Shown one piece after another: positions 1-64,000 of a stretch of 64,000 nucleotides of DNA. The notes below the pieces were generated by a model, which ran no database searches, was not told the DNA's origin, and was given only the letters and a program-made list of their open reading frames with translations. The DNA comes from an uncultured archaeon (GTDB taxonomy: Archaea > Aenigmatarchaeota > Aenigmatarchaeia > Aenigmatarchaeales > DAIDAN01), in NCBI GenBank assembly GCA_964545795.1, contig CAZJGC010000003.1:738-64737 (forward strand). The letters are read 5' to 3'. The position numbers and the translations under genes were made by a program. Every line of letters begins with the position of its first letter. The first letter of the stretch is position 1.

Positions 1-945
1 TCTTATTTCTTCTGTAGAATAAAATTTAACAAATCCTTTATCATCAACCAAAGCAACACCAACTTGTTCCGTATAAAATTTTACAAGAAAAAACGTTGGA
101 ATATCTAATTTAACAGGAGCTATCCATACAGGATTTCCTAATTCATCATGCGTGAATATTGTATCACCATAAGAAAAGAAGGGATATGTCAACCATAATT
201 TTATTTTGACATCTCTTATACCTCCGTTAATAATCTGATATATTATTGAGATTGGATCGCTCCGCTCTTCAGAAAACGGGATTGACTCAATAATCTTCTT
301 TCTGTCCGCAGGGTCTTCTGAATTAACAAGAATATAAGCAGGAGATGGATTTGCCGAATTAATAAGAGTTGATGGTTCATAAACAATTACCCAATAAAGA
401 GTATTGTTTATAGGATATATTCCATCCCAATCATATGACAAATGCCAGCCAGTTTCAGTAACCATTGTTTTCGGTATTTGCAAAGCATATTCCTGAGAAA
501 CAATCCTCGCGCCCTTTATATCATCTAACGTCAGAGTATTGTTTGTTGTCGTTTTATCAATCCTAACAATACTTACATTATTCATTTTATACCACTCAAC
601 TTCAAGCGGCGGCGCAAATACCGCTGATGCAATAGATGCAACAATAAGAATTCCTACGCCTGCAACCAATATTATCGGTTTGTTTTTTACTACAATGGCT
701 TCATTTCTTATTTGAAATATTCTCAAAAAACCTGTTGCAAAAATTCTTATAAAAACAGCTGCTACTATTGAACCTGTAGGGCTTGCTGAAATTAGAAATA
801 TTCCTAAAAACCATGAGAATAAAAGATTCCTTACTACCTTTTTCCTGTTTTTGAGTCCAAATATTGCCAGAGCCCCGACAATAATTGCCCATAAACTATA
901 AAACCCTGCAAAACCTAAACTCAGGAACATATCAGTCCAAAACAT
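1..945 (-). CDS. hypothetical membrane protein, partial (runs off the window start). Three N-terminal TM helices followed by a soluble domain.
   Basis: Manual translation of the minus strand from the ATG at 945-943 gives an uninterrupted 315-codon frame to position 1. It starts MFWTDMFLSLGFAGFYSLWAIIVGALAIFGL. It is missing from the ORF track because there is no stop in the window. The track's 701..892 ORF is in another frame. Confidence 0.4.
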   Translation of the reverse strand, partial: MFWTDMFLSLGFAGFYSLWAIIVGALAIFGLKNRKKVVRNLLFSWFLGIFLISASPTGSIVAAVFIRIFATGFLRIFQIRNEAIVVKNKPIILVAGVGILIVASIASAVFAPPLEVEWYKMNNVSIVRIDKTTTNNTLTLDDIKGARIVSQEYALQIPKTMVTETGWHLSYDWDGIYPINNTLYWVIVYEPSTLINSANPSPAYILVNSEDPADRKKIIESIPFSEERSDPISIIYQIINGGIRDVKIKLWLTYPFFSYGDTIFTHDELGNPVWIAPVKLDIPTFFLVKFYTEQVGVALVDDKGFVKFYSTEEIR

Positions 946-979: not shown

Positions 980-2170
980 TTATTTCTTTCTCACAACATA
1001 AACCAAATCGTTTTTTCTTGCTTTGCCTTTTGTTTTAATTCCTATAAGACTTCCTTTTGACGCATGTTTAACAGGCGCACCCTCCCTGTATATAGAATCA
1101 ATGTTTTGCCTCAAGTATGTTGTTTTGCCTTCTATTGTTATTTCATCGCCGACAGAAACAGGAGATACAATCTTTATTATTGCAACAGACTTTTTTGCAT
1201 AAAAATGCTTTACCATGCCAACATACTTTCTTGCAAATTTTGCCTGAGAATTAGAAGAGTTGTATTCAAATTCATTTCTGCCCGGGACAGAAAAATAAAA
1301 TCCTGTTGAAAAGCCCCGATTGTATACCTTCTTAAGCTCTTTTATCCATGTTAGCGTTTTCCTGTTAAAACTTCCGTCAAAAAAAGAGTCTATTGCTTCC
1401 CTGTAACACCTGCCAACAATTTCAACATATCTTGCATCCCTTAACCTTCCTTCCACCTTCAGCGAATCAACGCCAGATTTAATAATCTTTGGAATATGCT
1501 CTATCATGCACAAATCCTTAACATTCATAAGATACTTCCCTTTGCATAAAACCTGTTTCTTGTCTTCGTTTATTAAAACCCATTTCTGCCTGCATGGCTG
1601 GAAACACTCTCCGCAGTTAGCATTTTTTCCATAAAGATATGCTGAAAGAAAACATCTGCCTGAAATAGAAACACACATTGCACCATGAACAAAAACTTCA
1701 ATCTCCATGCCTGTTTCCTTCTTTATTTTTCTGATATCAGAAAGACTGCATTCTCGCGAAAGTATAACTCTTCTGGCTCCAAGTTTTTTATAAATTAATG
1801 CGGCTTTGCTGTTTGTTACATTTGCCTGCGTTGAAATATGAATAGGCAACCCCCTGTCTTTAGCAGCATCTATCACAGCCATATCCCAGCATATAATTGC
1901 ATCAACATCCGCAGTTTTTGCAACATCCATAAGTTTTTCAATCTTTTTAATATCCTTTGGATATATCACACTATTAACTGCAAGATATGCTCTTATGTTT
2001 CTATTATGGCATTCGCCAACAACTTTCTTAATTTCAGAACTCCGAAAATTTCCTCCGCGAACACGCATGTTAAATGATTTTGAACCAAAATAAACAGCAT
2101 CAGCATAAGGAAGAGATGCATTAAGATGCGTCCATGACTTTACAGGAAGCAAAAGTTCAGGTTTTCTCAT
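980..2170 (-). CDS. peptidase U32 family protein (collagenase-like)
   Basis: E-x-F-x-HGAMCVSISGRC signature typical of U32 peptidases; length about 396 aa. Confidence 0.75.
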   Translation of the reverse strand: MRKPELLLPVKSWTHLNASLPYADAVYFGSKSFNMRVRGGNFRSSEIKKVVGECHNRNIRAYLAVNSVIYPKDIKKIEKLMDVAKTADVDAIICWDMAVIDAAKDRGLPIHISTQANVTNSKAALIYKKLGARRVILSRECSLSDIRKIKKETGMEIEVFVHGAMCVSISGRCFLSAYLYGKNANCGECFQPCRQKWVLINEDKKQVLCKGKYLMNVKDLCMIEHIPKIIKSGVDSLKVEGRLRDARYVEIVGRCYREAIDSFFDGSFNRKTLTWIKELKKVYNRGFSTGFYFSVPGRNEFEYNSSNSQAKFARKYVGMVKHFYAKKSVAIIKIVSPVSVGDEITIEGKTTYLRQNIDSIYREGAPVKHASKGSLIGIKTKGKARKNDLVYVVRKK

Positions 2171-2224
2171 AAACCAACCTTATATTAAAAAAGATTTAAC
2201 TGTTTTTAAATTTATTTTTATTAA

Positions 2225-2959
2225 GTGATGCTAATGTCTACCCTGTTATGGATAATCTTAAGCACGTTTTTTGTTAGCATAATATCTTTTATTGGCATAA
2301 TCACGCTAAAAATAAAAGAAGATTTGCTATTGTTTTTTGTATCTTTGTCCGCAGGAGTCTTAATTGGAGCGGTTTTTCTGCACCTTATACCAGAAGCATT
2401 AGGAAGTTTTGCAAATAACAATATTTTTGTTTATGTTCTAACAGGCTTTGTCCTGTTCTTTTTAGTTGAAAAACTGCTTCACTGGAGGCATTGCCATAAC
2501 GGAAACTGCCATATACACACATTTGCCTACATGAATCTTATTGGAGATGCTGTGCATAATTTTATTGACGGTCTTATAATAGCCGCAGGATTTGCAAGCA
2601 ACTTCTCTCTTGGGATTGTAGCCACATTTGCTGTCGCCTTGCATGAAATACCGCAGGAAATAGGCGATTTTGGAGTTCTTATTTATGGAGGTTTTAAAAA
2701 ATCAGAAGCCCTTCTCTTTAATTTCATAACTGCGTTGACAGCGGTTTTTGGAGGCATTGCAGGCTATTATTTGTCTTCATACACCAAAGATTTTGCAATG
2801 TTCCTACTGCCTTTTGCTGCAGGCGGTTTTATTTATATAGCCGCAACTGACCTAATTCCTGAAATAAGAAAAGAAACAGACATAAAAAAATCTTTATTAA
2901 GCATACTTGTTTTCATGTTTGGCATATTAATTATGCACCTTGCAAAAATATTTATTTAA
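2225..2959 (+). CDS. zupT: ZIP-family divalent metal (zinc) transporter, ZupT-like
   Basis: Polytopic membrane protein with the HEIPQEIGDF motif and a His-rich loop (HWRHCHNGNCH). Confidence 0.75.
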   Translation: MMLMSTLLWIILSTFFVSIISFIGIITLKIKEDLLLFFVSLSAGVLIGAVFLHLIPEALGSFANNNIFVYVLTGFVLFFLVEKLLHWRHCHNGNCHIHTFAYMNLIGDAVHNFIDGLIIAAGFASNFSLGIVATFAVALHEIPQEIGDFGVLIYGGFKKSEALLFNFITALTAVFGGIAGYYLSSYTKDFAMFLLPFAAGGFIYIAATDLIPEIRKETDIKKSLLSILVFMFGILIMHLAKIFI

Positions 2960-8213: not shown

Positions 8214-9401
8214 TTAGTACAAAACCTCGCAAAGAACTTTCTTCATTTTCTCTTTGACAGTGTCGTCAACCATAAGATTTATTATTTTTGTGCGCCCATA
8301 TCTTCCTCTTGAAACATTTTTTGTGCTTATTATTCCAAACATATCAAGTTCAGATATAAGGTCTGAAACTCTTCTTTGAGTCAAAGGTTTTAACCCATAC
8401 TTCACGCAGTTTTTCTGATACTCTGAAAGAACATCTCCTGTAAGAACTTCTTTATTGTTTTCCAGCAAATCCAATATGGTCTGCATAACAATTTGGCTTT
8501 GTTTTGGCTGCGTCTTTACAATTTCAACAAATTTGTCAACATTTATTTTCTCTTCTGCTGAATCAACATGTTTTATTGTTACTTTCCTGCTTCCAGAACG
8601 CTCGGCAATCTCTCCTGCAACGCGGAGCAGATCCAAAGCCCGCCTTGCATCCCCATGCTCCTGTGCAGCAAGCGCAGCGCACTTCTCTATAACACCTTCT
8701 TCTATAACTCCTTCCGAAAAAGCAATTTCAGCCCTCTGCCTCAATATATCCTTTATCTGCGAAGCATTGTATGGAGGAAAAATAAGTTCTTCCTCAGAAA
8801 GAGATGATTTAATTCTTGTATCAAGAGTATTTACAAAACTAAGGTTGTTTGTTATTCCTATCAAACATATTTTTGCATTTTTCAATTCCTGATTTATTCT
8901 TGTCAGATTATAAATAATTTCATCTCCTGTCTTCTGCACAAGAGCATCTATTTCATCAATTATTAAAATCAAAATCTGTTTTTCAGAATCTATAACATCA
9001 AGAAATATTTTATATATCCTGTCAGTAGGAAGTCCTGTAAAAGGAACTTCTTTTCCAAGTTCTTTTAGTATTGTTGCCAATACCCTGTATTCTGTGTCTG
9101 CCACTTTTTTAAGTTTGCAGTTTATATAAACAGATTTTACTTTAAATTTCCTACTAGTTTCAATAAGTTTTTTTGTAACATAACATGAAATCAATGATTT
9201 CCCTGTTCCTGTTCTACCATAAATAAAAACATTGCTTGGTTTTGAACCAACAAGGGCAGGTGCCAAAATTTTGCCAAGTTCCTCTATCTGTTTTTCCCTA
9301 TGCAATATTTTACCAGGAACAAAACAAACAGAAAGAGCATCCCTGTCATTAAATAAACATTGAGATTGTATAAAATCATTAAATATTTTTTCCAAACTCA
9401 T
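8214..9401 (-). CDS. cdc6: Orc1/Cdc6 replication initiator
   Basis: AAA+ Walker A (GRTGTGKS) and Walker B (LILIIDEIDAL) with C-terminal winged helix; lies next to an AT-rich ORB-bearing region. Confidence 0.95.
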   Translation of the reverse strand: MSLEKIFNDFIQSQCLFNDRDALSVCFVPGKILHREKQIEELGKILAPALVGSKPSNVFIYGRTGTGKSLISCYVTKKLIETSRKFKVKSVYINCKLKKVADTEYRVLATILKELGKEVPFTGLPTDRIYKIFLDVIDSEKQILILIIDEIDALVQKTGDEIIYNLTRINQELKNAKICLIGITNNLSFVNTLDTRIKSSLSEEELIFPPYNASQIKDILRQRAEIAFSEGVIEEGVIEKCAALAAQEHGDARRALDLLRVAGEIAERSGSRKVTIKHVDSAEEKINVDKFVEIVKTQPKQSQIVMQTILDLLENNKEVLTGDVLSEYQKNCVKYGLKPLTQRRVSDLISELDMFGIISTKNVSRGRYGRTKIINLMVDDTVKEKMKKVLCEVLY

Positions 9402-49120: not shown

Positions 49121-49666
49121 TTAGGGTGTAATTCTGACTATTTCAAAGTATACGACTTTATCATCTTTATCTACCAAAGCCCAGAGCATATGCGCTCTTA
49201 TGTTATGCGCAAGCCTGACTGCTCTGGAAAGTTCCTGAAAACCGCAGGAATAATTTTTTGGAACAGCAAAAACAATCCATTTTGTATGTTCTGCCGCGCT
49301 TTTTGGACCTCTTTTCAAAGGTTTTACTCCTTTATTATAGACGCGGAAGTCGCAGCCAAACTTGAATCCTGTTCTTGTTGGATATGATTTGTTTCTAAGG
49401 TCAGTGTAAACAATAAATCTTTCCCTGAATCTGTTGTCTATAGAGCAGCAATAATCAAAAAATTCATTAAATCCCATTTTTTTATTGTTGTTGTAAATTG
49501 TTATTTTCTTTTTTTTATATAGAAATGCTGCTTCCACAAGAGATAATTCAAGCCTGTCTTCTCTAAGCCTTCCATAATAATCATTTTCAAATATGTTTTT
49601 TGCTGCATTTCTGTCCCATATAAAAACCTTGTCCTGAGCAATCTGCGCTTTTATCATAATCATCAC
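49121..49666 (-). CDS. endA: tRNA-splicing endonuclease subunit (EndA family; retains the Tyr and His of the catalytic triad)
   Basis: YTDLRNKSYPTRTGFKFGCDFRVY...AEHTKWIVFAV...RLAHNIRAHMLWALVD matches the EndA catalytic-domain pattern. Confidence 0.8.
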   Translation of the reverse strand: MMIMIKAQIAQDKVFIWDRNAAKNIFENDYYGRLREDRLELSLVEAAFLYKKKKITIYNNNKKMGFNEFFDYCCSIDNRFRERFIVYTDLRNKSYPTRTGFKFGCDFRVYNKGVKPLKRGPKSAAEHTKWIVFAVPKNYSCGFQELSRAVRLAHNIRAHMLWALVDKDDKVVYFEIVRITP

Positions 49667-49669
49667 ATT

Positions 49670-50188
49670 TTATATCTTCAGTTCATTTACAGCATAATAA
49701 GTTATGTCTGTGTCGTTGTCTACAACTGCCCATAGCGCAGTTGTTTTAATGTTTTGTGAGAGTTTTGTTGCTCTCTCAAGCATGCTAAAATCCGAAGGAT
49801 AATCTTCAGATGCAACAAAAACTATCCATTTTACTTTTTCTGCTTTATTTGGTTTTGCACCCCTGTCATAAACCCGAAGGTCCATGCCTTTAAATCCGAC
49901 TCTGACGGGGAGCCCCCTTTCTCTCATGTCTTTATAAACATAATAAAGATTAGTGAAATTATTGATTTTTGAGCAGCAGTAGTGATAAAAGTCAGAGAAT
50001 GATAATTTCTTGTTTTTAATAAATACTTCAAGCCTTCCTCTTTCCTGCAAAAGAAGAGCTTCCACAAGAGATAATTCAAGATTTCCTGATTTTATGTTTC
50101 CATACCATCCGTTGTCAAAGTATTCTTTGCCTTCTTTATCTTCTACTATTACTTTTATGTCTTCAATTCTTCCTTGCATAGAATTCAC
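49670..50188 (-). CDS. tRNA-splicing endonuclease paralogous subunit (EndA family; the His position is substituted, so it is likely the structural partner)
   Basis: YKDMRERGLPVRVGFKGMDLRVY...KVKWIVFVAS...ALWAVVD. It is a paralogue of the adjacent gene, with a KAEKVKW segment in place of AEHTKW. Confidence 0.7.
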   Translation of the reverse strand: MNSMQGRIEDIKVIVEDKEGKEYFDNGWYGNIKSGNLELSLVEALLLQERGRLEVFIKNKKLSFSDFYHYCCSKINNFTNLYYVYKDMRERGLPVRVGFKGMDLRVYDRGAKPNKAEKVKWIVFVASEDYPSDFSMLERATKLSQNIKTTALWAVVDNDTDITYYAVNELKI

Positions 50189-50799: not shown

Positions 50800-51894
50800 T
50801 TATTTTACGTAATATCCCACGGCTTCTGATATGTTTCTAAACCCGTCATGTTCTAAAAACTGAGATAATTCATAATTTATTTTATTGCAGACAAAAGGGC
50901 CTTCATATGGTATTGCCGTAAATATTTTTTCTAAATTAGAGCCGAGCAAAATCTTTTCATAAGCGTCTTTGCCTGAAAATATCCCGCCAACGCCTATTAT
51001 GCTTTGGTCTTCTTCCTTTATTTTATAAACCTGCTCAATCAGTTTGTTTGACTTCAATTTAAGAGGCTTTCCGCTTAATCCTCCCCTTAATTTCTTTGTG
51101 TTTTTTTCATTTGTTTTCAAGCATTCTCTTGATTCTGTTGTGTTGCATATCACAAATCCGTTAATGTCATAATCTTTGCAGATTTCAATGTCTCTTTCAA
51201 GAACATTATTTTTGATGTCAGGCGAGATTTTCAGAAATACAGGCTTCCAGTCGTATGAGCAGCGTTCATCATCTATTTTTGAGAGGAGATTTTCTAAATT
51301 ATCTGGTTCTTCAAATTTTCTGCTTTCAGATGTATTTGGACAGGATATATTAAGTATTGTGCCGCATCCAAACTGGTGTAATTTTCTGAAAGAAGAAAGA
51401 ATGTCGTCAAATCCGGAATAGTCAGATGCGCATGCGTTATGAGTTTTTGCTATGCTTACAAAGTAAGGTATTTTTGGTTTTGATTTTTTTATTAATATGG
51501 ATATTTTAGTTGCGCCATAATTTTCCAACCCAATTCTGTTTATAATGGCTTCATCTTCAGGAAGCCTGAATATTCTGGGTTTATTGTTGCCTTTGCTTTC
51601 TTTTGCTGTAACAGAACCAACTACGTGAAAGCCAAATCCGGCATAGTGCGCAATATTCAATAGTTTTCCATTCTTGTCAAACCCTGCCGCCATGCCAAGA
51701 GGGTTTTCAAATTTTATTCCAAATAACTCTGTTTCAAGGTTTTTATTCTTGTATATTAGTTTTTTCCCCAATTCGTCAAAAACAGGATTGTTTATTTTTC
51801 CAATAAGATAGCCTGCTGAAATTGCTGCATTATGCGCTGTTTCAGGGTATAAATGAAACAGCGCAGGCCTTATAATTTTTTTGTAAATGTTCAT
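50800..51894 (-). CDS. pyrD: dihydroorotate dehydrogenase, class 2 (quinone-dependent)
   Basis: FGIKFENPLGMAAGFDKNG, GFGFHVVGSVT and PRIFRLPEDEAIINRIG motifs. The start was reset to MNIYKK because the track's upstream extension overlaps tRNA-Phe. Confidence 0.8.
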   Translation of the reverse strand: MNIYKKIIRPALFHLYPETAHNAAISAGYLIGKINNPVFDELGKKLIYKNKNLETELFGIKFENPLGMAAGFDKNGKLLNIAHYAGFGFHVVGSVTAKESKGNNKPRIFRLPEDEAIINRIGLENYGATKISILIKKSKPKIPYFVSIAKTHNACASDYSGFDDILSSFRKLHQFGCGTILNISCPNTSESRKFEEPDNLENLLSKIDDERCSYDWKPVFLKISPDIKNNVLERDIEICKDYDINGFVICNTTESRECLKTNEKNTKKLRGGLSGKPLKLKSNKLIEQVYKIKEEDQSIIGVGGIFSGKDAYEKILLGSNLEKIFTAIPYEGPFVCNKINYELSQFLEHDGFRNISEAVGYYVK

Positions 51895-51925
51895 GGTATA
51901 TAGAATGAAATTAAAACTTTTTAAG

Positions 51926-52053
51926 TGGTGAGGCGGGCGTGATTTGAATTCGCGGAGCCTTTTTCGGCAGATGCTCACACGCGACAACACGGTGTCCAGT
52001 TACTTCAGCCGTGCGCTCTCCCGAGCTGAGCTTACGGTAAAAAATACCGCCTC
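51926..52053 (-). tRNA. tRNA-Phe (anticodon GAA) apparently carrying three introns; CCA is encoded
   Basis: Minus-strand cloverleaf: acceptor GAGGCGG/CCGCCUC, U8A9, D-arm GCUC-AGCUCGGGA-GAGC, anticodon stem CACGG/CCGUG with loop CUGAAG..A, T-stem GCGUG/CACGC with T-loop UUCAAAU, discriminator A. Insertions of 13 nt (52032-52044), 9 nt (51994-52002) and 29 nt (51949-51977) bring 128 nt down to 77 nt. Confidence 0.55.
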
Positions 52054-52068
52054 GCGCACACGCCTCAC

Positions 52069-52335
52069 TTAGTTAAAGTCTTGAATGTCAATGCTTATTA
52101 TTTTTTTGTTTTTTATTGATATTGAGTTTAGTTCTCTTATCAATTTTCTTAATGAATTTGAGTGGTCTTCGCATAAATAAATTTTTGCTATTTCCTTTTC
52201 TGACAGTTTTGTCAGGTGTTTTTCCTTAAATAAAATCACTTTTGATATTTCTTCATTGCAGCCGATTGCGTTGCAGGCGGAATCAAACTTTTTGATGTCA
52301 AATTTCTTTATAAGCAAGTTTGATATCTCTTCCAT
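52069..52335 (-). CDS. hypothetical small protein
   Basis: The track ORF was trimmed to the internal Met (MEEISNLL) because the upstream extension overlaps tRNA-Asn. Confidence 0.3.
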   Translation of the reverse strand: MEEISNLLIKKFDIKKFDSACNAIGCNEEISKVILFKEKHLTKLSEKEIAKIYLCEDHSNSLRKLIRELNSISIKNKKIISIDIQDFN

Positions 52336-52352
52336 TAAATCACGCCGTTGAA

Positions 52353-52440
52353 TGGCGCCTGGGACAGGACTCGAACCTGCGACCACCTGGTTTCTGTATA
52401 AATTAACAGCCAGGTGCTCTACCTGCTGAGCTACCCAGGC
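52353..52440 (-). tRNA. tRNA-Asn (anticodon GUU) with a 12-nt canonical intron at 37/38; CCA is encoded
   Basis: Acceptor GCCUGGG/CCCAGGC, D-arm GCUC-AGCAGGUA-GAGC, anticodon stem CCUGG/CCAGG, anticodon GUU at 52405-52407, intron at 52392-52403, T-loop UUCGAGU. Confidence 0.85.
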
Positions 52441-52479
52441 TCTGTAAGAATAAAATATAATTAGAAAACTTATAAAGGT

Positions 52480-53262
52480 TTAGTTACCTGTTGATGTGTA
52501 ATTTTTTAGTCCCAATTTCCAGATGCTGTATGCAATTGCGAATGCTATAAGTGTTACAATAGGTGTCAGGAAAGCCGCCCATACGGCAATGCCCTTTCCA
52601 AGGAAAGCCTGGGCAGGGTAATATATTGTAAACGCGAATGGAAATATGAATGAAACAAGGAAAATTATTGGAAAACTGTATATTTCTAATGGGTATGTTG
52701 TAAAGTTTCTGAAGTGCAGAATGATGTTTGAAAGAGTCTGCGATCTGGTTGTCCAAAATGCAACAGATGTTGGTATAAGCATGATTGAAAACAATAATAA
52801 CACAGAACTGAATAAAAACAGCAGAAATAGAAGTATGTTTGCAATACTCCATGCTATCCCTATTTTTAATGAACTTATATATAGCAAAACAGCACCAATA
52901 AAAATATCTCCAAAATGTTCGGTGTCAATCTTTGATGTTATTAGCTGAAAAAGCGGATTTATTGGTTTTGTTAAAAATTTGTCAAATTCACCTTCTGATA
53001 TCAATCTGTCCATGTCCCATAATGGGAACAATGATGAAAACAATCCTGCTGTCAAAGTTGAGAATCCTGATAAGAACAACATTTCATAAAGAGACCATCC
53101 GTTTATGCTTGTTATATGCGAAAAAATTATCCATATAAATGAAACAGAAACAATGCCCCAAAGCGCCTGTGTTGTAAAACCAATAAGAAAATCGGTTTTG
53201 TATTCCAATAATGAATGTATATGTAATTTTATAAATCTTAAATATAAATTTAGGTAATTCAT
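52480..53262 (-). CDS. ABC-2 family transporter permease
   Basis: 6 TM helices; downstream of the ABC ATPase. Confidence 0.55.
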   Translation of the reverse strand: MNYLNLYLRFIKLHIHSLLEYKTDFLIGFTTQALWGIVSVSFIWIIFSHITSINGWSLYEMLFLSGFSTLTAGLFSSLFPLWDMDRLISEGEFDKFLTKPINPLFQLITSKIDTEHFGDIFIGAVLLYISSLKIGIAWSIANILLFLLFLFSSVLLLFSIMLIPTSVAFWTTRSQTLSNIILHFRNFTTYPLEIYSFPIIFLVSFIFPFAFTIYYPAQAFLGKGIAVWAAFLTPIVTLIAFAIAYSIWKLGLKNYTSTGN

Positions 53263-54057
53263 TCAACCACCATGCGCGCTATATTTTTTTCTTGCTTTCT
53301 TAAAAAGAAACTTGCCTATGTAAAAAAATACAACAATCCAGAATATCTGTTGTGTTATGGCATAGATGATATCAATTCCATGTATTTTTCCTATGTAAAT
53401 TGACAATGGTATGTGAGATATTGATTTAAACGGTAGCAGCAAGGCAATGTTTTTCAACCAGTCTGGAAACAAATACAGCGGCAAAAAACTTCCTGCAAAA
53501 AAATCTATTATTATTTCTTTAAATCTTCTTATTCCTCTTGTTTGTTCAGTCCAAAATGCAGTCAGCCAAACAAGAAACGCTAATGAAAATGAGGTTAATA
53601 TGCTCAATATTGTGCTTATGAAAAACAATAACAGTGTTTGTAGTGGAGGCACAAAGATATTGAAAATCAAAACAGCGAAAATTAGTGTTGGTAATATACT
53701 AAAAATGACAGAAAGGAAATTGTCTGCTATATCCCTTGAAAAAATATAATTTTGAATATCCAAAGGTTTTGTTAATATATTAGTTATAGCATTTTTGTTT
53801 ATATCCCAATACGCTTTTCTGTCTGTATTTGAATAACCAGCAAACATAATAATTACGCTCATAGCCATATATGTTATCATTTCCTTTAGACTAAGACCCC
53901 CTATGGTTTGTAAATTATTATATGTGTATATGGATGTCCATAGAAAATAAAAAACCGAAATAAAAATTATGCCAGATATGCTGAAAATTAAGAAATCAAA
54001 CTTATATACCATCTCCTTTTTTATGGCTGTTTTTAACACTTCAATATATTTTTTCAT
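53263..54057 (-). CDS. ABC-2 family transporter permease
   Basis: 6 TM helices; paralogue of the adjacent permease. Confidence 0.55.
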   Translation of the reverse strand: MKKYIEVLKTAIKKEMVYKFDFLIFSISGIIFISVFYFLWTSIYTYNNLQTIGGLSLKEMITYMAMSVIIMFAGYSNTDRKAYWDINKNAITNILTKPLDIQNYIFSRDIADNFLSVIFSILPTLIFAVLIFNIFVPPLQTLLLFFISTILSILTSFSLAFLVWLTAFWTEQTRGIRRFKEIIIDFFAGSFLPLYLFPDWLKNIALLLPFKSISHIPLSIYIGKIHGIDIIYAITQQIFWIVVFFYIGKFLFKKARKKYSAHGG

Positions 54058-55046
54058 CTGCCACGCCTGTAAACTTCTTTTATTATATTCTCTATTTTCG
54101 GTTCTTCTATTGTAATGTCGTGGATTGAAAACTTTGACATAATCTGGTTTACAATTGAAGATAATTCTGCATGCTTGTCTATTCTTAACCAGAACCTTCT
54201 GCCTGCTGTTTTGAGTATTGTCATATTTTTGATTTTAATTTCTGACTTTCTTACATTCTCATGAAAATCCACTATAATTATTTTGCCATTTGAAAACCTT
54301 TTTCTTACATCTGCCAGCATGCCATCGTAAATGATTTTTCCCTTGTCTATAATTATTGCCCTTTTGCATAGTTTCTCTATGTCTGACATATCGTGAGTCG
54401 TGAGTAGAATTGTTGTTTTTTCTTTCTTGTTGACTTCTTTTATGAAGTTTCTGATGCTGTGTTTTGCTATAATGTCAAGCCCTATTGTAGGCTCGTCAAG
54501 GAACACGACTTTTGGATTATGAATCAAAGAAGCTGCCAAGTCGCATCTCATTCTTTGCCCAAGAGAAAGTTTTCTTACAGGAATGTCCAATAGTTGGTTT
54601 AAGCCCAATATTTTTGAAAATTTTTTCATGTTTCTCTTAAATTTGGCTTCTGATATGTCGTATATATGTTTTAGTAAATTGAAAGATTCTTTCACAGGCA
54701 AATCCCACCAAAGTTGCGTGCGCTGCCCAAAAACAACTCCTATATGTTTTGCATATTCTTCTCTTTGCTCAAATGGCTTGAACCCAGTCACGTTTATGGT
54801 TCCGGATGTTGGATAAAGCACGCCTGTAAGCATTTTGATTGTTGTTGATTTTCCCGCGCCGTTAGTGCCTATGAAACCAACAATTTCACCCTTTTTTATT
54901 CTAAAACTTATTCCGTTTACGGGCCTGATAATTTTGTATTCCCTTTTTATTATTGTTTTTAGAGAATTCCACAACCCTTCATTTTTCTTATATAGTTTAA
55001 ATTCTTTTACAAGGTTTTCAACTTCAATAATATCCATTTTATGCAC
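54054..55046 (-). CDS. ABC transporter ATP-binding protein
   Basis: Walker A GTNGAGKST, signature LSLGQRMR, Walker B VVFLDEPT. Confidence 0.9.
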   Translation of the reverse strand: MHKMDIIEVENLVKEFKLYKKNEGLWNSLKTIIKREYKIIRPVNGISFRIKKGEIVGFIGTNGAGKSTTIKMLTGVLYPTSGTINVTGFKPFEQREEYAKHIGVVFGQRTQLWWDLPVKESFNLLKHIYDISEAKFKRNMKKFSKILGLNQLLDIPVRKLSLGQRMRCDLAASLIHNPKVVFLDEPTIGLDIIAKHSIRNFIKEVNKKEKTTILLTTHDMSDIEKLCKRAIIIDKGKIIYDGMLADVRKRFSNGKIIIVDFHENVRKSEIKIKNMTILKTAGRRFWLRIDKHAELSSIVNQIMSKFSIHDITIEEPKIENIIKEVYRRGR

Positions 55047-63030: not shown

Positions 63031-64000
63031 ATGATGTTTATGTTTGATGTTATGCTTGCTCAGCTTTTTGGACAAGGCGACTGGTTGGGCACTATTATAT
63101 CATTCGCTTTTATTTTCCTTCTGGTAATTTTCGGTCCAAGACTTATGATAACTCAGACAGTCATGAAGCTTGAAAAAGATGTTCTGGAACTTGAAAATAT
63201 GGCTTCAAAGGCAAGAAAATTTACAGTAAAAAGATTTATTGAGAATCCGTCCAGAGAAGCAAATGAAAAGGTAAAGAGTTTTATGGATTTTTTTGTTGCT
63301 GTTCCTGTAAGCACAGACCCATTTGGCATTATAAAGAAAATTGATGCTGTGATGCGGCATGGAAACAAAAAACACAAACTTTTCGTAGAGTCGCTTGCAC
63401 CAGGCATAAGCAAGACAGAAAAAATGAATTTTAGCGCTGCGCTTGCGCATAGTTCAGGAATTCAACAAATAGCCAAAATAATGAGGCATTATCTTGAAAC
63501 TATAAAAAAATACAAAATTTTCCAACTTGCAATGATTTTGCAGATGCAGTTTCCGTTAATAAAGAGAATGGCAGTGGCGCTTTATGATTCTGTTGATGCC
63601 TTTACAAAAGGGTTGCCTATCGGAGACGGAATTGGCCCAATGGTTGTTGCAAATATGATACCTTCTGAAAGGAATGTTAAAAAAATAGAGTCTGAGGAAT
63701 TTGTTTATTATAAAACCAAAATAAATGGAAGGGATGTCATACTTTCAAAGGCTGACGGTCCCGGCGCATCCATAGGGCATCCTGGCAAGTTTGTTGAGTA
63801 TATTGCAAAGAAGGAAAAAATAACAAGAATAATATCAGTAGATGCCGCCATGGGATTGGAGGGAGAAAAGCCGGGAAGCATAGCAGAAGGTGTTGGCTTT
63901 GGAATGCGCGGTTCAAACCCTGTTGATTCTTTTGAAATAGAGGAAATTGCAACAAAAAAAGGAATATTGCTTGATTCAATAGCAATTAAACAAATAGGAG
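63031..64000 (+). CDS. DUF1512-like archaeal membrane protein, partial (runs off the window end)
   Basis: Manual translation from the ATG at 63031 gives MMFMFDVMLAQLFGQGDWLGTIISFAFIFLLVIFGPRLMITQ... with no stop through 64000. It is not in the ORF track. The opposite-strand track ORFs 63153..63413, 63205..63450 and 63737..63985 are antisense artefacts. Confidence 0.4.
   Translation, partial: MMFMFDVMLAQLFGQGDWLGTIISFAFIFLLVIFGPRLMITQTVMKLEKDVLELENMASKARKFTVKRFIENPSREANEKVKSFMDFFVAVPVSTDPFGIIKKIDAVMRHGNKKHKLFVESLAPGISKTEKMNFSAALAHSSGIQQIAKIMRHYLETIKKYKIFQLAMILQMQFPLIKRMAVALYDSVDAFTKGLPIGDGIGPMVVANMIPSERNVKKIESEEFVYYKTKINGRDVILSKADGPGASIGHPGKFVEYIAKKEKITRIISVDAAMGLEGEKPGSIAEGVGFGMRGSNPVDSFEIEEIATKKGILLDSIAIKQIG

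Follow-up and report, generated by a model that had tools for sequence, protein, structure and literature searches.

We report that the 64,000-nucleotide stretch of archaeal DNA analysed here (the window) carries, on its minus strand, what is very probably a functional tRNA-Phe(GAA) gene, kept by selection in a DPANN-type archaeon and interrupted by three introns of the type removed by the splicing endonuclease. The class of gene is already known, and the locus adds another multi-intron tRNA gene to it. The gene runs from 52053 (G1) to 51926 (A76), an interval that an earlier note on this DNA had placed correctly, giving no strand; its four exons are contiguous and in order, all within 128 nt. 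Excision of inserts of 13, 9 and 29 nt (Table 1) yields the 77-nt GAGGCGGTAGCTCAGCTCGGGAGAGCGCACGGCTGAAGACCGTGTTGTCGCGTGTTCAAATCACGCCCGCCTCACCA, which ARAGORN accepts as tRNA-Phe(GAA), with the acceptor, D, anticodon and T stems all fully paired. The spliced molecule has the anticodon loop CUGAAGA, the T loop UUCAAAU, a D-arm of the form GCUC-AGCUCGGGA-GAGC, A73 and an encoded CCA, so that the reassembly described in the earlier note is borne out in every sequence detail that it listed. G20, G37 and A73 are nucleotides that fit a Phe tRNA.

When unspliced, the gene is invisible to standard tools: ARAGORN called no tRNA anywhere in the window, and Rfam did not detect the gene even at E<=10, matching the neighbouring tRNA alone. 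In base composition the locus stands out as an island of 60% GC, against a window average of 34%. Self-splicing group I or group II introns were ruled out, since the inserts are only 9-29 nt long and no Rfam intron matched at E<=10 in 51500..52800, and a split or permuted tRNA was likewise ruled out because the exons are contiguous and ordered.

The standard geometry at archaeal splice junctions is the bulge-helix-bulge (BHB), a 4-bp helix between two 3-nt bulges (PMC4090602). The cut site was taken to follow the second bulge nucleotide (marked here by a caret), a rule of our own derivation that the intron of the neighbouring tRNA-Asn gene fits (CUGU:ACAG, then AA^A). A blind scan for this geometry, applying a strict rule to all 8124 possible intron boundaries in 51900..52090, passed 14, two of which coincide exactly with the 9/10 and 53/54 introns. 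The earlier note had proposed BHB prediction at each junction as a check on its reading; such a motif was found at 9/10 and at 53/54, and no more than a relaxed one at 37/38. Intron 3 reads CGCG-UG^U-GAGC...GCUC-CGCG-AA^U, with a 3-nt bulge on either side and central and inner helices of canonical form, and scored 4/4 Watson-Crick central pairs (CGCG:CGCG) and 4 for the inner helix (GAGC:GCUC), the contiguous outer helix scoring 0. Intron 1 forms a bulge-helix-loop, in which an outer helix G1A2G3:C11U12C13 and a central helix G4C5G6G7:CCGU are accompanied by a 3' bulge AA^G, the 5' site UA^U sitting in a loop; it scored 4/4 central pairs and 3 for the outer helix. Intron 2 has the anticodon stem as a 6-bp outer helix and a 3' bulge AC^A, and its central helix is considered below with the alternatives. 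A single fold containing all three motifs and the leader helix described below has an energy of -52.1, against a minimum free energy (MFE) of -55.2, that is, 3.1 kcal/mol above it. Other boundaries were tried and rejected. Alternative 9-nt deletions at the anticodon loop leave CUGGACA or CUGAACA, with a pyrimidine at 37, and only the 37/38 boundary gives G37 and A38; an 8/9 boundary for intron 1 leaves the product unchanged and offers no BHB register, so that 9/10 is preferred.

Two contigs found through an endonuclease search (L114 and L115; numbers of this kind are our own), with an EndA 83% identical to that of the window, have the same order of genes as the window: tRNA-Asn with an intron, a small open reading frame (ORF), tRNA-Phe, AmzA, EndA and EndA. 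The tRNA-Phe orthologs lie at 1656..1985 (+) in L115 and 2019..2275 (+) in L114. After splicing, the L115 ortholog equals the window tRNA at 77/77 positions. It has a 105-nt intron at 20/21, one of 13 nt at 37/38 and, at 53/54, a 60-nt homolog of window intron 3; position 9/10 is uninterrupted. Because the exons are identical and the intron set is different, the exons are seen to be strictly constrained while the introns turn over, and exon identity amid such turnover is therefore a strong argument against a pseudogene. Furthermore, an independent contig of 1078 nt from another sample (L122) is identical throughout the locus, which excludes an assembly artefact. Two contigs with 66% EndA identity and partial synteny (L120 and L121) had no tRNA-Phe in the matching gaps, and a scan of viral contigs for the intron-1 signature returned random coding matches only.

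A metagenome scan with an exon-2 pattern retrieved 31 tRNA-Phe loci, and these place the three introns in a wider context. The other metagenomic genes are 84-96% identical to the spliced tRNA, L100 and L101 being lower at 80% and 78%. The closest (L085, L099 and L112, 96%) have introns of 14 nt at 9/10 and 13 nt at 37/38 and are uninterrupted at 53/54; L083 and L104 (90.5%) have a 23-nt intron with an inner helix at 9/10, none at 37/38, and are again uninterrupted at 53/54. L098 and L103 (85% and 84%) lack introns at 9/10, 37/38 and 53/54 alike, and score 69.7 and 65 bits as Rfam tRNAs, while L100 and L101 are interrupted at 37/38 only, by 14 and 38 nt respectively, with nothing at 9/10 or 53/54. 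Each of the three intron positions is therefore uninterrupted in at least one relative. The anticodon arm of L098 is the same as that of the window and lacks the intron, and the same T arm occurs uninterrupted in L085, L083 and L103. At 9/10, the 14-nt introns of L085 and L112 and the 23-nt intron of L083 have a central helix GCGG:CCGC, and the L083 intron displays the full motif, with an inner helix UCCU:AGGA, in its MFE fold; the intron is missing in L115, L098 and L103. At 37/38 the introns measure 13 nt in L085 and L115, 14 nt in L100 and 38 nt in L101. The earlier note had treated the inserts as introns; with collinear, conserved exons, BHB or relaxed geometry, relatives that are intron-free or differently interrupted, a neighbouring tRNA-Asn that likewise has an intron and an encoded CCA, and two EndA paralogs in the gene cluster, they behave as archaeal protein-spliced introns would.

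One intron of L115 may have arisen from another within the same gene. The first 13 nt are common to its 20/21 and 53/54 introns, and the 3' end of the 20/21 intron, GGCUCCGAGAA, matches the 53/54 intron of the window, GGCUCCGCGAA. The two differ by one base in the central-helix strand, CGAG at 20/21 and CGCG at 53/54, and the exon partners match the change: the 20/21 strand faces CUCG in the D loop, the 53/54 strand CGCG ahead of the T stem. Such a pattern is the signature that intron copying within a gene would leave, here from the T arm to the D loop, with the splice motif retained. In the D loop of L114 a C-to-A change breaks one pair of the 20/21 intron helix. Transposition of tRNA introns is known in Thermoproteales (Fujishima et al. 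2010, summarised in PMC4090602 and PMC4033280), and the likeness lies in introns copied between sites, as at 20/21 and 53/54 of L115; the L115 case differs in that the copy would have been made within one tRNA gene, with a single retargeting change, in a DPANN lineage.

The window also encodes a candidate enzyme, in the form of two tandem EndA genes. The best match of the alpha-like protein among solved structures is Nanoarchaeum equitans NEQ205 (3IEY_A, E = 2.6e-29), with which it shares an insert of 7 residues between the catalytic Tyr and His; judged by position, this is probably the 'L3' loop, which Kaneta et al. linked to increased tRNA gene disruption in DPANN (PMC5829648). The beta-like paralog has Glu at the His position when aligned to Methanocaldococcus jannaschii EndA, and is presumably structural. 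The pair is kept in L081, L114-L118, L120 and L121, always 3' of an archaemetzincin (Peptidase_M54) gene, an arrangement that points to a heteromeric enzyme of (alpha-beta) type in the DPANN lineage studied here. Among the 120 nearest homologs of the alpha-like protein, the equivalents of Tyr115 and His125 are invariant, as is the Arg that precedes the position of the catalytic Lys; that position itself is Ala in 114 and Ser in 6, and both NEQ205 and M. jannaschii EndA retain the Lys. Since a related enzyme loses its activity on a Lys-to-Ala change (PMC5829648), either this family supplies the function differently or the alignment misses a compensating residue.

Taken together with the motifs, these genes suggest a route to the mature tRNA, in which splicing, the sequence in which the cuts are made, the ligase and the part played by the leader are inferred. 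Transcription of the minus strand would give a precursor of ~145 nt carrying the 13-nt 9/10, 9-nt 37/38 and 29-nt 53/54 introns, each of which would pair with adjacent exon to form a BHB or a relaxed motif (bulge-helix-loop, HBh'). Cleavage, two nucleotides into each 3-nt bulge, would be the work of the heteromeric splicing endonuclease whose genes lie 1.7 kb downstream, and an RtcB-type ligase would seal the exons to give a standard 77-nt tRNA with its encoded CCA. The motif at 9/10 poses a particular difficulty, for it would use nucleotides 1-7, which otherwise belong to the acceptor stem. It is for this reason, we propose, that the gene carries in its leader a near-copy of the acceptor 5' strand, GUGAGGCG, which would pair with the 3' acceptor strand and free the real 5' strand for the splice motif. 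Once splicing was complete, this decoy helix would have to give way to the real acceptor stem, and an enzyme, presumably RNase P, would then take the leader off.

The earlier note had observed that the leader can pair with the 3' acceptor strand, and had suggested an extended precursor helix. The pairing is real and conserved, GUGAGGCG being complementary to CGCCUCAC, but it competes with the acceptor stem and does not extend it. A leader complement of 6-9 bp to the 3' strand is present in 3/3 lineages with a 9/10 intron, with a leader-shuffle fraction of <= 0.01 in each, and is absent from 15 loci without that intron. The L115 ortholog, with its identical exons and no 9/10 intron, has AAAAAA in its leader and no complement. 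The copies themselves have diverged (GUGAGGCG, GUGGGGC and AUGGGGUGG, the last with a U.G pair) and retain pairing with the 3' strand, the terminal pair being G-C74 in one lineage and A-U74 in another. In the MFE folds of 4/4 precursors the leader is paired with the 3' strand, and G4-G7 with the intron. In the model the intron-1 central helix forms with a probability of >= 0.98 when the native leader is present, and of 0.02-0.13 without a leader or with the leaders of six other tRNA-Phe genes. From these observations we give close to an even chance, or a little less, to the view that the leader stands in for the acceptor 5' strand, as a decoy (surrogate), and so allows the 9/10 intron to form its splice motif. 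The more general proposal, of a built-in folding switch that is needed for splicing acceptor-adjacent introns and is gained and lost with the 9/10 intron, we put forward tentatively, at rather less than even odds. No description of a leader copy of the acceptor strand was found in the limited literature covered (PMC4090602, PMC4033280, PMC3293823, PMC5829648).

Several results count against the decoy. Leaders shuffled with their composition preserved still give a mean helix probability of 0.5-0.7, and the comparison rests on four distinct sequences. Covariation is weak, with 2 pairs changed on both sides and 58/500 shuffles equalling it, and the A/G covariation could be mere copying of the 5' strand. 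In the model, removal of intron 1 still leaves the decoy helix favoured, with an acceptor probability of <= 0.06, and the hand-over to the real acceptor stem is thus one that the model does not explain. A competing account of the leader, touching no other part of the reading, is that GUGAGGCG has no function and is the remnant of a neutral duplication of the 5' end, inherited along with intron 1. The weak covariation and the want of displacement after splicing in the model suit it, as does the spacer between the copy and G1, which is unconserved and differs among lineages in sequence and in length (3-7 nt), and the three carrier lineages may share one ancestral event. It accounts less readily for pairing kept in all three lineages despite divergence of the copies, for the element being missing from the ortholog with identical exons and no 9/10 intron, or for the modelled switch of the intron-1 helix from <= 0.13 to >= 0.98. 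We consider this neutral origin a serious contender, with a probability somewhat short of one half. Two further ideas about the leader were rejected. Were the copy the true exon 1, followed by a fourth intron in the acceptor stem, the repeat would leave the product unaltered; the strands GAGG and GAGG, not being complementary, allow no BHB, and L115 fixes the mature 5' end as GAGGCGGUA. Removal of the leader by the endonuclease, through a leader/trailer BHB at -1/+1, fails in the window and in L085 because the four bases before the cut are unpaired with C72-C75.

For the gene as a whole, the obvious alternative to a functional tRNA is a decaying tRNA-Phe pseudogene that has accumulated insertions, a working copy residing elsewhere. 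The 64 kb of genome in view and the poor splice motif of intron 2 would allow it. Yet all stems pair and the conserved nucleotides are intact, the inserts have BHB geometry at exact boundaries, and there are 0/77 exon differences from L115, whose introns, flanking ORF (76% at the amino acid level) and EndA (83%) have diverged; identical exons among diverged introns and neighbours point therefore to purifying selection on the exons only, and we judge a pseudogene most improbable. That the locus is an artefact or chimera of assembly, or a chance resemblance to a tRNA, would be conceivable from its source in a metagenome assembly, but the identical contig from another sample and the syntenic ortholog with identical exons refute the former and the enrichment in the BHB scan speaks against the latter, so that its probability is negligible.

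Intron 2 leaves more room for argument. It might be that introns 1 and 3 are spliced and that the 9-nt insert at 37/38 is removed by another route or at another boundary, or inactivates the tRNA. Nine nucleotides is very short for an intron, the central helix comprises C-G, U.G and G.U with an A x C mismatch (3/4 pairs, two of them G.U), and by hand analysis the introns of L085 and L115 at the same site have 2/4 central pairs only. Against this, the bulge AC^A directly on the 6-bp anticodon stem is the relaxed HBh' arrangement (PMC4090602), L100 has the same YUGG:CUGA pairing with 4/4 pairs, G37 and A38 result from the 37/38 boundary alone, and introns at 37/38 persist in five lineages with intact exons. 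Non-standard removal or inactivation is accordingly a reading to which we attach only a small probability. A gene with three spliced introns is thus preferred, and several facts still tell against it: the central helices just described, which mean that recognition of intron 2 rests on a relaxed (HBh' type) motif and not a strict one; the Ala aligned to catalytic Lys156 of M. jannaschii in the alpha-like EndA, whose activity is assumed; the lack of an RtcB among the 26 window ORFs scanned with Pfam; and the 64-kb portion of the genome inspected, outside which there may be a second tRNA-Phe. What is observed at the locus is the anatomy of the sequence, its conservation, the turnover of introns among relatives and the presence of endonuclease genes, from which we infer splicing itself.

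Table 1. Features of the tRNA-Phe(GAA) locus and its surroundings, in window coordinates.
Feature	Position	Strand	Description
Leader element	52061..52068	-	GUGAGGCG; near-copy of acceptor 5' strand, complementary to C67..C74 of 3' strand
Leader spacer	52054..52060	-	UGUGCGC, between leader copy and G1
Exon 1	52045..52053	-	acceptor 5' strand GAGGCGG + U8 A9; same as start of L115 ortholog
Intron 1	52032..52044	-	13 nt, position 9/10, UUUUUUACCGUAA
Exon 2	52003..52031	-	D arm, G26, anticodon stem 5' strand, loop CUGAAG through G37
Intron 2	51994..52002	-	9 nt, canonical position 37/38, UAACUGGAC
Exon 3	51978..51993	-	A38, anticodon stem 3' strand, variable loop UUGUC, T-stem 5' strand GCGUG
Intron 3	51949..51977	-	29 nt, position 53/54, UGAGCAUCUGCCGAAAAAGGCUCCGCGAA
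Exon 4	51926..51948	-	T loop UUCAAAU, T-stem 3' strand, acceptor 3' strand CCGCCUC, A73, CCA
tRNA-Asn(GUU)	52353..52440	-	Rfam RF00005, 62.9 bits; missed by ARAGORN; encoded CCA
pyrD	50800..51894	-	quinone-dependent dihydroorotate dehydrogenase, PF01180; starts 32 nt past tRNA 3' end
EndA paralog, beta-like	49670..50188	-	PF01974 + PF02778; without catalytic His
EndA, alpha-like, catalytic-type	49121..49666	-	PF01974 + PF02778; Tyr and His of the triad present

The neighbouring tRNA-Asn gene is itself interrupted, by a canonical 12-nt intron (52403..52392) with a central helix CUGU:ACAG and a 3' bulge AA^A; its ortholog in L114 and L115 has a different intron, of 13 nt, with the same BHB. Between the two tRNA genes lies an 88-aa ORF (52069..52335, -) with no Pfam match, the stop codon of which abuts the leader element. 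It is conserved only in L114 and L115 (76% identity), a homolog search returning itself and L115 only, and in L114 the called small ORF runs into the 5' exon of tRNA-Phe. Relative to those two contigs the window has two insertions, pyrD between tRNA-Phe and AmzA, and an ABC-2 transporter operon (52480..55046, -) between topoisomerase VI-A and tRNA-Asn. The earlier note had held that gene callers extended pyrD across the tRNA, which the deposited gene call does not bear out: the deposited product P0001 has 364 aa and an ATG start at 51894, and only a mechanical, GTG-started ORF (50800..51990) overlaps the tRNA. Among reference genomes, PyrD has its nearest relatives in bacteria, at ~40% identity, and the closer ones, at 45-55%, are mostly unnamed metagenomic proteins, the named ones belonging to metagenome-assembled genomes (MAGs) of DPANN; a contig with a 55%-identical PyrD (L082) had no tRNA upstream of it. 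Other genes of the window specify archaeal PolB, Orc1/Cdc6, topoisomerase VI A and B, and AlaRS. For PyrD and EndA the closest homologs that bear a name come from MAGs of Nanoarchaeota, Woesearchaeota, Aenigmarchaeota and Micrarchaeota, and for this reason the host is taken to be a DPANN-type archaeon. The strongest GC-rich island in the window (8574..8708, 64%) lies inside the Orc1/Cdc6 gene (8214..9401, -); this and a further island at 63727..63922 were ruled out as RNA genes, both being coding. Elsewhere among the retrieved contigs, L103 carries a tRNA-Lys(UUU) with a ~30-nt insert in the D loop (675..770, -), and other interrupted tRNAs of 108-171 nt occur in L085 (271..441, -), L083 (8100..8207, -) and L101 (613..733, +). 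Non-canonical introns appear to be common in these lineages that bear the tRNA-Phe.

Multi-intron tRNA genes have been documented in Thermoproteales (PMC4033280, PMC4090602) and reported for DPANN (PMC5829648). The tRNA-Pro(UGG) of Pyrobaculum islandicum, for example, has introns at 25/26, 37/38 and 56/57 (PMC4090602, PMC4033280). There too a gene may bear three short introns, one canonical and two non-canonical, with BHB or relaxed HBh'/hBH motifs cut by the splicing endonuclease. The host of the window gene differs in being an AT-rich archaeon of DPANN type and not a crenarchaeon, and its 9/10 intron is accompanied by a leader copy of the acceptor strand. The catalogue of known intron positions includes 20/21 and 53/54 (PMC4090602); for 9/10 we could not confirm an entry. 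A parallel to the leader is offered by the split tRNA halves of Nanoarchaeum equitans (PMC4090602), where pairing of non-tRNA flanks likewise brings the splice motif to the endonuclease. In the split tRNAs, however, the flanks pair together and form the BHB itself, whereas the leader of the window gene pairs with exon, in the 3' acceptor strand, and would aid a cis intron indirectly.

The splicing endonucleases described from DPANN archaea include the (alpha-beta)2 enzyme of N. equitans, the epsilon2 enzyme of ARMAN-2 and EndAs with an L3 loop (PMC5829648, PMC3239211). Of these, the alpha-like EndA of the window is most similar to NEQ205, with which it shares the Tyr-His insert, and it differs from NEQ205 in belonging to a family with Ala or Ser at the catalytic Lys position in 120/120 close homologs. 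The window enzyme is further set apart from known DPANN endonucleases by being encoded as a tandem pair of full-length paralogs.

Kaneta et al. anticipated that disrupted tRNAs would have gone undetected in DPANN and Asgard genomes (PMC5829648), and since both ARAGORN and Rfam miss the present gene, genomes of the lineage would seem to lack tRNA-Phe. The features most worth following are the differing intron sets of the orthologs, the copying of an intron within a gene, the proposed leader decoy and the endonuclease family that lacks the lysine. An EndA family without the canonical Lys bears on the catalysis of cleavage. The leader decoy, if true, would explain how an intron is tolerated whose splice motif competes with the acceptor stem, and would add a leader-dependent step to archaeal pre-tRNA processing. 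Together the window and L115 provide, in a lineage other than the Thermoproteales, a compact natural case in which tRNA introns are rapidly gained, lost and transposed.

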